32,000 bases of DNA from Caldivirga maquilingensis IC-167. Its GTDB lineage: Archaea; Thermoproteota; Thermoprotei; Thermoproteales; Thermocladiaceae. The notes under the pieces are model-generated. The model searched no databases and was not told the origin of the DNA. It worked only from the letters and a program-made list of their open reading frames with translations. Location of the stretch: the NCBI RefSeq assembly GCF_000018305.1, contig NC_009954.1:1020001-1052000 (forward strand), in the 5' to 3' direction. The position numbers and the translations under genes are program-made. Of the stretch, positions 6,254 to 23,721 are shown one piece after another (position 1 is the stretch's first letter; every line of letters starts with the position of its first letter).

Positions 6254-6916
6254 ATGCCGTATGACGTACCATATGTACCATCCCCGGAGGTTGTGGTAAG
6301 AAGAATGCTTCAAGTAAGTGGGGTAAGGCCTGGTGAGGTTGTTTATGATCTTGGGTGTGGTGATGGTAGGATAGTTGTAATGGCTGCTAAGGAATTTGGT
6401 GCAAGGGCTGTTTGCGTTGAGATTAGGAATGATCTTTATGAACAAACCCTCAGGAGGATTAAGGAACTTAACCTTGATAATGTTGTTAAGGTTATTCACG
6501 GCAACTTCTTCGAGGTACCTATAGAGGATGCCGACGTGGTAACCATGTACCTCCTAACAAGTGTTAATCAAATGCTTAGACCTAAGCTTGAGAGGGAGCT
6601 AAGGCCTGGGACAAGGGTTGTTAGCCATGATTTCGAGGTACCCGGCTGGAAGCCCATACTTGCTGAGGATGTTTACGAAGAGTGGAGGAGTCATAAAATA
6701 TACCTATTCAAGATACCTGGCGCTGAAATACCAATACCAGCCCAAACCCAGGTAAGTGTACCCAGTGAGTACTCAGATATAGTTAAGTTACTTGATGGGC
6801 GTAGATCAATAGAGGAGATAGCTCAGAAGACTGGCTTAACAATGAGGAGGGTTAGGGAAATAGTTAATGAACTTGAGAAACTGGGGGTAGTTAAGGAGGT
6901 TAAGGTTATTAAGTGA
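6254..6916 (+). CDS. Class I SAM-dependent methyltransferase resembling the crenarchaeal protein-lysine methyltransferase aKMT, fused to a C-terminal winged-helix domain
   Basis: VPYVPSPEVVVRRML, motif I VYDLGCGDGRIV, and GNFFEV...VVTMYLL...LRPGTRVVSHDFEVPGWKP. The C-terminal 50 aa LLDGRRSIEEIAQKTGLTMRRVREIVNELEKLGVV is wHTH-like. The ATG at 6254 is preferred over the TTG at 6239 because TATA TTTTAAAAC lies about 25 nt upstream. Confidence 0.75.
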   Translation: MPYDVPYVPSPEVVVRRMLQVSGVRPGEVVYDLGCGDGRIVVMAAKEFGARAVCVEIRNDLYEQTLRRIKELNLDNVVKVIHGNFFEVPIEDADVVTMYLLTSVNQMLRPKLERELRPGTRVVSHDFEVPGWKPILAEDVYEEWRSHKIYLFKIPGAEIPIPAQTQVSVPSEYSDIVKLLDGRRSIEEIAQKTGLTMRRVREIVNELEKLGVVKEVKVIK

Positions 6917-21058: not shown

Positions 21059-21086
21059 ATTACGAATTGATTTTCATAAATAACAG

Positions 21087-21161
21087 CGGGCCCGGTGGGA
21101 TTCGAACCCACGACCTACGGGTTAAAAGCCCGCCGCTCTAACCTGGCTGAGCTACGGGCCC
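21087..21161 (-). tRNA. tRNA-Lys (anticodon UUU), intron-less, CCA not encoded
   Basis: Reverse complement: GGGCCCG UA GCUC AGCCAGGUUA GAGC G GCGGG CUUUUAA CCCGU AGGUC GUGGG UUCGAAU CCCAC CGGGCCC G. All four stems pair. 75 nt. Confidence 0.95.
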
Positions 21162-22310: not shown

Positions 22311-23345
22311 CTACTTAATGTTCATTGATTTAATTATTATTAATTCATCACCTGGTTTAATAATTAGTTCATCACTTGGGCTTATTAACACCTCATTATT
22401 TCTGAGAACACCAATGAGTATTCCCGACTCATCTTCCCTCACCCTAATGAGGGCATCCTTGAAACTCAACCCAGTGTACTTGCTTGAGTTAATAACTAAG
22501 ATTTCACTGTTACCTCTAAGTAGCCTCATTATTGCCTTTAATGATCCCCTATAAATGATTTCATTCGCCATAGCTATTGTTGTTAATGACCCCACGGCTA
22601 TTGCTTCATCGGCTCCAGCCTTAAGTACATACTCCGCATTACCCTCATTGAGGAGCTCAGCCACTATGTAGAGGCTTGGGTTAATGCTCCTAGCCACCAC
22701 AACCTCCATAAGTGTCCTAGCATCCGCTGAAGCAGAATCCCCCTGGGGTAGGATTATTAGTGATGATGCCTTATCAACATTAGCCCTAATTAAAGTATCC
22801 TTAAGCGTTGGGTTACCCTTAATGAATTCAACATCCTTAGGTAAGTTAGGTGGTTTTTCAAATTCACTTACGTAAACTATATCAATGAATTTACCTGACT
22901 CATCCATTAATTTAATCAAAGCCTTAATTAAGTTGATAGCCCTCTCAGGCTCACCCAGAATAACCACATGATTACCCTTACTGCTTGACTTCATACCACC
23001 CATCTTCTCCATAGCCCTCTCAGTTAATAAGGTGGCTATTGATGCTGTTAATATGCTTATTACCGCTATACCAATTGGCATTATAACCATATCCAAAACC
23101 CTACCCACAGTGGTTTGAGGAACAATATCCCCGTAACCCACGGTGGTTATAGTCTCCATGACGAACCAAATGGCATCGAAAAAGTTCCTAATACCAGGGT
23201 TATGACCATGCTCAACCAGATAAATGCCTAATGCACCTATGAACAACACAGCCATAAACATTAATATTACGTAAACTACTAGGCTTCTCAACACTCTCCT
23301 AATCCTCCTCATTAGCCTATACACATTCAATTGTATAATAGGCAT
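22311..23345 (-). CDS. Two-TM potassium channel with cytoplasmic RCK (TrkA-N/TrkA-C) domains, MthK-like
   Basis: Selectivity filter TTVGYGD between two TM helices, followed by the RCK Rossmann-like HVVILGEPERAINLIKAL and a C-terminal TrkA-C-like segment. Confidence 0.9.
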   Translation of the reverse strand: MPIIQLNVYRLMRRIRRVLRSLVVYVILMFMAVLFIGALGIYLVEHGHNPGIRNFFDAIWFVMETITTVGYGDIVPQTTVGRVLDMVIMPIGIAVISILTASIATLLTERAMEKMGGMKSSSKGNHVVILGEPERAINLIKALIKLMDESGKFIDIVYVSEFEKPPNLPKDVEFIKGNPTLKDTLIRANVDKASSLIILPQGDSASADARTLMEVVVARSINPSLYIVAELLNEGNAEYVLKAGADEAIAVGSLTTIAMANEIIYRGSLKAIMRLLRGNSEILVINSSKYTGLSFKDALIRVREDESGILIGVLRNNEVLISPSDELIIKPGDELIIIKSMNIK

Positions 23346-23469
23346 ACTAAACCCATAGTAGCATCCCCTCTAATAATGCTTAATTAGCGTTACCATTATA
23401 GAAACTTAACCTAACATTAAGCATCCTAGTATGAACCGGTGGTTTAGGTGACGGGAGAAGGAAAAGTGA

Positions 23470-23527
23470 TGCGGCCGCCGGGATTTGAACCCGGGATCTG
23501 CGGCGTTCCACGCGGGCGGTGCGTCAA
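23470..23527 (-). tRNA. Orphan tRNA 3' half (positions about 38-73, Gly-like) preceded by a GC-rich leader; candidate split-tRNA fragment
   Basis: The minus strand reads (leader) GCACCGCCCGCG UGGAAC, then GCCGC AGAUC CCGGG UUCAAAU CCCGG CGGCCGC A, then UCACUUUUCC. No GCGGCCG 5' acceptor strand or D-arm occurs within about 250 nt upstream or 120 nt downstream. Confidence 0.7.
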
Positions 23528-23546
23528 GGGTACTGCCTTATAGGCC

Positions 23547-23553
23547 TTTTAAA
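23547..23553 (-). promoter_or_regulatory. TATA box dedicated to the tRNA 3'-half transcript
   Basis: On the minus strand TTTAAAA is centred about 25 nt upstream of the start of the GC-rich leader. Confidence 0.55.
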
Positions 23554-23721
23554 CATTTCGTTAAGTACCCATAAACCTTTACCGCCTGCACTTTATTTCA
23601 CAATAATGTTATTCAAGCGTTCCTTAGACTTCACTAAATTAGCCACAAACTTAATGAATATTACAAAGTGAAGCATTAAATTAGTTTAAGAACGGTTTAT
23701 TACTAAGGTTTACCTTCATTG

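Follow-up and report, generated by a model that had tools for sequence, protein, structure and literature searches.

What is a perfect tRNA 3' portion doing behind its own TATA box when the 5' part of the molecule is missing from the DNA around it? The question is raised by a minus-strand locus of Caldivirga maquilingensis, within a stretch of 32,000 nt of the genome (referred to below as the window; G+C ~43%) for which a first-pass annotation, working from the letters, had proposed a candidate split-tRNA 3' fragment with features of tRNA-Gly. The kind of element and the appeal to Caldivirga as a precedent prove to have been well chosen, but we believe that the locus is a published gene and not a new candidate: it is very probably the independently transcribed, constitutive tRNA-Gly 3' half (positions 38-73), whose partners are encoded separately and joined to it in trans. 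This 3'-half gene is already known and is one of the founding examples of split tRNAs. Split and tri-split tRNAs are central to the debate on tRNA origins, in which an assembly from two half-genes is set against a late fragmentation of the genes. The rediscovery of the 3'-half locus adds no new kind of biology; what is recorded here in addition are three further Caldivirga lineages with orthologues, a leader that is frozen across the genus and a conserved trailer.

Anatomy of the locus

The window was identical to two assemblies from sequencing runs over 10,868 and 12,313 bases. The element lies in a gap of 376 nt which has a gene for a TrpB-like protein on one side and a K+ channel gene on the other; the TrpB-like protein matches the C. 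maquilingensis protein at NCBI with 100% identity. Direct reading of the minus strand confirmed the TATA box, the GC-rich leader and the perfect tRNA 3' portion that had been described in the first-pass annotation, and gave the order GTACTTAACGAAATG, TTTAAAA, GGCC, a 20-nt spacer, a 17-nt GC-rich leader, an exon corresponding to tRNA positions 38-73 and UCACUUUUCC, the last of which stands directly 3' of the discriminator A73. The parts are listed here with their identity to the window in the other Caldivirga lineages considered below.

23554-23568, minus strand: pre-TATA block GTACTTAACGAAATG; 14/15 and 15/15 identical in two lineages, 11/15 in the MU80 clade
23547-23553, minus strand: TATA box TTTAAAA; together with the adjoining GGCC (23543-23546), 11/11 identical in all lineages
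23523-23542, minus strand: spacer from the promoter to the putative transcript start; the sole variable stretch within the unit, 12-15/20 identical
23506-23522, minus strand: 17-nt leader GCACCGCCCGCGUGGAA, composed of GCACCGCCCGCG-UGGAA; helix strand invariant (15/15) in all lineages
23470-23505, minus strand: exon, tRNA-Gly positions 38-73; 36/36 identical in all lineages
23436-23469, minus strand: 3' trailer UCACUUUUCCUUCUCC-CGUCACCUAAACCACCGG, a T-run and an 18-nt block; conserved

The exon reads CGCCGC-AGAUC-CCGGG-UUCAAAU-CCCGG-CGGCCGC-A and consists of C38, the 3' strand of the anticodon stem (GCCGC), a 5-nt variable loop (AGAUC), the T-arm, the 3' strand of the acceptor stem (CGGCCGC) and the discriminator A73, with positions numbered by counting back from the T-loop and T-arm. 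The TATA box is situated 24 nt upstream of the leader. This resembles the intact tRNA-Lys(UUU) gene of the window, where TTATAAG is followed by 25 nt and then by the mature 5' end, leading us to place the transcript start, on the basis of this distance, near A23524/G23522. The variability of the spacer would be in accord with a start near these residues, the spacer itself not being transcribed. Judged at the sequence level, the 3' half appears to have its own promoter directly upstream; the GTACTTAACGAAATG block that immediately precedes the TATA box is probably a BRE or upstream promoter element, and the T-run in the trailer is probably a terminator.

Probable identification as the published tRNA-Gly 3' half

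Archaeal tRNA-Gly identity is determined by C2:G71, G3:C70 and A73, and a C at position 70 excludes Ala. The Gly character of the locus can be read directly, as the acceptor strand CGGCCGC of the exon implies the pairs G1:C72, C2:G71 and G3:C70, together with A73. Split and tri-split tRNAs were reportedly described in C. maquilingensis by Fujishima et al. 2009 (PNAS 106:2683), who are said to have verified both expression and the joined products experimentally.

According to the literature, from which we also take expression, partners, trans-splicing and endonuclease processing, C. maquilingensis has six split or tri-split tRNAs that are assembled from ten primary transcripts (PMC4033280) and are processed by the splicing endonuclease (PMC3218864). 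One constitutive 3' half is common to the tRNA-Gly isoacceptors with the anticodons CCC, UCC and GCC (PMC4390854, PMC4090602, PMC4033280). The Gly halves comprise positions 1-37 and 38-73. In the tri-split forms a shared 1-25 piece is combined with either of two 26-37 fragments, and the other split sites of this species are at 29/30 for Ala and 25/26 for Glu (PMC4090602). As the anticodon would remain part of the 3' piece after splits at 29/30 and 25/26, the Gly 3' half is the sole type of 3' piece without an anticodon, and a locus in this species that starts at C38, has no anticodon and carries Gly determinants is, by elimination, the published gene. Sequence strings of the locus had no match in the text of the relevant papers, and the proposed identification with the published gene rests on species identity and fragment type.

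The locus agrees with the published Gly 3' half in species, in fragment type (38-73, without an anticodon), in Gly features, in promoter and in GC-rich leader, and no difference between the two was detectable; the reviews (PMC4390854, PMC4090602, PMC4033280) are silent on conservation of the trailer. A separate 3'-half gene starting at position 38 is likewise found in Nanoarchaeum equitans (Randau et al. 2005), for instance for tRNA-Glu. There the tRNA-Glu 3' half is common to two 5' halves, so that one 3' half serves several isoacceptors as in Caldivirga, and a GC-rich leader of ~12 nt pairs with the trailer of the partner prior to processing by the splicing endonuclease (PMC4033280, PMC4390854). 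Caldivirga differs from N. equitans in belonging to a different phylum, in being free-living and in having a 3' half that also enters tri-split assemblies.

Conservation within Caldivirga

Orthologues of the locus were present in Caldivirga sp. UBA161 (L060), in the metagenome-assembled genome (MAG) GCA_049973695.1 (L142) and the related ERZ1669247 (L140), and in the MU80 clade (L147, L148). A unit of 133 nt is kept in these lineages and in the window, four in all, amid intergenic DNA that is unalignable, which goes far beyond chance; the flanking DNA, over 50 nt at each end, has 31-46% identity (upstream ~33%). Exon, leader helix strand and TATA box with GGCC are identical to the window throughout, and the less conserved parts are the pre-TATA block (11-15/15 over all lineages) and the spacer. 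The leader has a sole substitution, found in the MU80 clade, where position 23506 has G for A and UGGAAC becomes UGGAGC.

The unit occurs in three gene contexts, in one of which it is inverted. In strain IC-167, the source of the window, and in L142 it is flanked by the TrpB-like and K+ channel genes, in UBA161 the upstream gene is a different one, and in the MU80 clade (L147 ~6410-6540, minus strand; L148) it has the inverted orientation and lies between genes for a TrpB-like protein and endonuclease V. Its conservation through these three contexts indicates a self-contained gene under strong selection, which the comparison shows directly to be purifying and to act on promoter, leader and exon. 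That the leader should be as well conserved as the exon would be expected if it pairs with the trailers of three partners at once, since any change in it would then need three simultaneous compensations and a frozen leader would result.

In Thermocladium modestius (BMNL01000002.1, L141) and Vulcanisaeta distributa (CP002100.1, L143), the DNA upstream of the K+ channel orthologue had no tRNA-Gly, half or intact, and given this absence in the sister genera the position in Caldivirga does not obviously go back to an intact ancestral gene there. We also observed that the letters following A73 are CCA in the MU80 clade and UCA in C. maquilingensis.

Relationship to fusellovirus attachment sites

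An orphan 3' part of a tRNA gene may also be a partial duplicate left at the end of an integrated element, in this case fusellovirus-like or other, and would then be a nonfunctional remnant of an attachment site. In a BLAST comparison of the unit with phage genomes the exon alone was matched, with 94% identity over 36 nt, and the matches were located within integrase genes, those of SSV2, SSV7, SSV-Lassen and other Sulfolobus spindle-shaped viruses. One of these viral cores had been annotated by its depositors as "probable integration site; identical to part of tRNA-Gly". Alignment of the exon (23470-23505) with SSV2 (NC_005265.1, 2596-2631) and SSV-Lassen (KY563228.1, 3950-3991) identified the attP cores as copies of a Sulfolobus tRNA-Gly(CCC) that start at the anticodon stem and are identical to the exon at positions 49-73. 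This identity to a viral copy of tRNA-Gly(CCC) confirms the Gly isotype and supports the first-pass annotation in its Gly-like assignment, in which C70 was taken to exclude Ala. The attP cores of SSV2, SSV7 and SSV-Lassen are, like the Caldivirga exon, orphan 3' portions of tRNA-Gly, and integrations of this kind do leave such orphan parts behind.

The resemblance is nevertheless confined to the exon. The viral cores are internal to an integrase ORF and extend over the anticodon loop, with neither promoter nor leader, whereas the Caldivirga unit stands in no integrase context: the match of the SSV2 integrase to the window (tblastn) was confined to 16 residues whose codons lie in the tRNA-like core, with no integrase fragment flanking it, and the neighboring TrpB-like, K+ channel and AcnX genes encode no integrase domains. 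The att-site duplicate in an integrase-flanked element, which the first-pass annotation had kept in view as a counter-reading, is consequently not what we find around the locus. Viral similarity ends at A73 on one side and within the anticodon stem on the other, so that leader and trailer are unrelated to the viruses, and the exon had 0 matches in viral contigs and none in plasmids. A conserved TATA box and an invariant leader and exon in four lineages and three contexts would be unexpected for a remnant, and the literature has all tRNA-Gly of C. maquilingensis made from the constitutive 3' half (PMC4390854, PMC4090602). We therefore consider it very unlikely that the locus is an att remnant.

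The annotated core of SSV-Lassen, 42 nt long, spans the 37/38 junction, which implies that a split gene lacks a complete target of such a kind. The match between the exon and an att core that spans 37/38 bears on the published idea of a link between tRNA gene fragmentation and integrating elements.

Absence of a 5' half

ARAGORN and Rfam at its gathering threshold called a single tRNA in the window, tRNA-Lys(UUU) at 21086-21161, and neither of them called the 3'-half locus; a low-threshold Rfam scan matched its T-arm/acceptor part alone, via tRNA-like models. Reading of raw sequence alone can spot split-tRNA genes that are missed by standard tRNA finders.

We find it barely credible that the locus belongs to a permuted or long-intron tRNA gene with its 5' half nearby. 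Permuted tRNAs are known in Thermofilum pendens, which also belongs to the Thermoproteales (PMC4033280), but the intergenic space available here measures 376 nt only and has coding genes on both sides, and the missing parts of a tRNA were not found in the wider surroundings. Within the 32-kb window, the sole occurrence of the acceptor 5' strand GCGGCCG is a palindromic overlap at the 3'-half locus itself, and the strand was absent from the orthologous loci as well. No D-arm and no complement of the trailer were present in the window or in the orthologous loci, the 125 nt downstream to the K+ channel gene contain neither the acceptor 5' strand nor a D-arm, and searches for GC islands and promoter motifs yielded no further tRNA fragments in the window and orthologous loci. 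A 12-mer able to pair with the leader was not found elsewhere in the window with G:U pairs and one mismatch allowed. As both the acceptor 5' strand and the leader-pairing 12-mer are lacking in the window, neither a long-intron nor a permuted gene is present. The first-pass annotation had excluded both gene types from the absence of the 5' acceptor strand and D-arm close to the locus and had stated that partner fragments were not in the window; its view holds across all 32 kb.

A fragment of a decaying tRNA pseudogene, or a functionless sequence that resembles a tRNA by chance, would be in keeping with the silence of the tRNA finders and of Rfam at curated thresholds and with the lack of a significant fold of the lone transcript (z = 0.89), but folding is not expected of a half-molecule alone, the architecture of T-arm, acceptor strand and anticodon-stem strand is perfect, the promoter is present at the correct distance and exon and leader are 100% conserved next to unalignable DNA, and we accord this explanation practically no weight.

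Proposed joining to partners and the bulge-helix-bulge register

For a tRNA-Gly 3' half that is joined in trans, the promoter would give rise to a short transcript consisting of the 17-nt GC-rich leader, the 36-nt exon and the 3' trailer, and the leader would anneal to partners from separate genes via their complementary trailers. The literature gives these partners as a 1-37 half with the anticodon CCC and 26-37 fragments with UCC or GCC, the latter joined to the common 1-25 fragment. The annealed helix would, with the anticodon stem, form a bulge-helix-bulge (BHB) motif at 37/38, at which the tRNA splicing endonuclease would cut, thereby removing the leader, and ligation of the exons would produce the mature tRNA-Gly.

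In the canonical archaeal BHB the 3-nt bulges are 4 bp apart and the cut falls between bulge nucleotides 2 and 3, and an anticodon-intron pair is formed at position 32. Two registers of the leader were examined, with model partners only. In one of these, the central helix is made of GUGG and C32-U33-N34-C35, A-A-C38 forms the bulge and GCACCGCCCGC pairs with the trailer of the partner in the outer helix; the leader would then be made up of an 11-nt outer-helix strand, the 4-nt central strand GUGG and AA as the first two nucleotides of the bulge. The cut in this register falls exactly 5' of C38 and matches the published 37/38 junction, with four pairs (two of them wobble) for the anticodon GCC and one mismatch for UCC or CCC. 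In the other register, UGGAA is the perfect complement of U33-UCC-A37. It was this pairing, as UGGA with UCCA, that the first-pass annotation preferred, but the optimum in a co-fold with a model UCC partner was a near-continuous helix which has no 3-nt bulges and is not a BHB, whereas the GUGG register, which it had mentioned as an alternative, fits the cut at 37/38. We infer from this geometry that GUGG would be the central strand. The leader substitution of the MU80 clade fits both registers, being located in the bulge in the GUGG register and converting U:A to U:G in the UGGAA register.

The antisense of the leader reads GCGGC-GU-UCC-A-C-GCGGGCGGUGC and mimics a 27-37(UCC) fragment with its trailer. 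We rejected this antisense sequence as a partner on two grounds, as sense and antisense would form a perfect duplex without bulges, and as the antisense in the MU80 clade would have C33 in place of the universal U33. The mimicry is probably a relic of the pairing between intron and anticodon and not a gene.

Searches for partner fragments were extended beyond the window. In the genome collection, scanned with a permissive pattern, no partner was seen among the matches listed, which comprised the UBA161 orthologue of the locus itself and chance matches in GC-rich bacterial DNA. The whole metagenome collection was searched with a strict pattern that included a calibrated T-run filter, and returned one orthologue (L140) and 15 apparent chance matches in bacterial coding sequences but no partner; this is a weak negative, as MU80-type loci (TGGAGC) themselves fall outside the pattern. 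Viral contigs gave four chance matches and no partner, and no partner was found in ~112 kb of Caldivirga and Thermocladium DNA.

A conserved 3' trailer

Conservation does not stop at the discriminator. A trailer of ~34 nt (23469 to 23436, minus strand) is conserved past A73 and moves with the unit through all three gene contexts. It contains the 18-nt block CGUCACCUAAACCACCGG (CGTCACCTAAACCACCGG), which is identical at 18/18 positions in the equivalents of L060 and L142 and, as judged by eye, at ~16/18 in L147 of the MU80 clade. The tRNA-Lys(UUU) gene served as an internal control, and there conservation ends at the discriminator with no conserved trailer following it. Folding predicted no structure for the trailer and a low-threshold scan gave no Rfam match to it. 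Its complement was not found in the window or in the Caldivirga and Thermocladium DNA searched, and a 15-mer from it, which is a short pattern, had chance matches only in viral contigs.

It is possible, though we put this forward tentatively from the conservation pattern, that the trailer and especially CGUCACCUAAACCACCGG have a hitherto undescribed function in the split-tRNA system. Our best guess is that the trailer would aid the assembly or the processing of the half-molecules. One possibility is that the 5' leader of the 1-25 and 1-37 fragments pairs with it and so lengthens the 7-bp acceptor helix, in which case the pieces could assemble at ~85 C; were there such an assembly helix, a CCGGUGGUUUAGGUGACGG-like complement would be expected upstream of the 1-25 and 1-37 fragments. 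Alternatively, the trailer might be a binding or processing signal that is specific to half-tRNA transcripts.

Observations on neighboring genes

Several features of the surrounding DNA are recorded here in their own right. A strong Rfam match to Sso133 (Sulfolobus sRNA133; 83.9 bits) was obtained at 798-865 of L142 in the Caldivirga MAG and has no counterpart in the window. The K+ channel ORF (window 22311-23345, minus strand) had no identical protein at NCBI and is carried by the sequencing-run assemblies only, where it is called as 327 aa; the public record may give it a different start or list it as a pseudogene. Lastly, tRNA-Lys(UUU) (21086-21161 in the window, minus strand) is intronless in C. 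maquilingensis and has an intron at the canonical position 37/38 in L142 (9141-9232) and in L147 (8212-8300), from which it follows that the presence of this intron varies within the genus.
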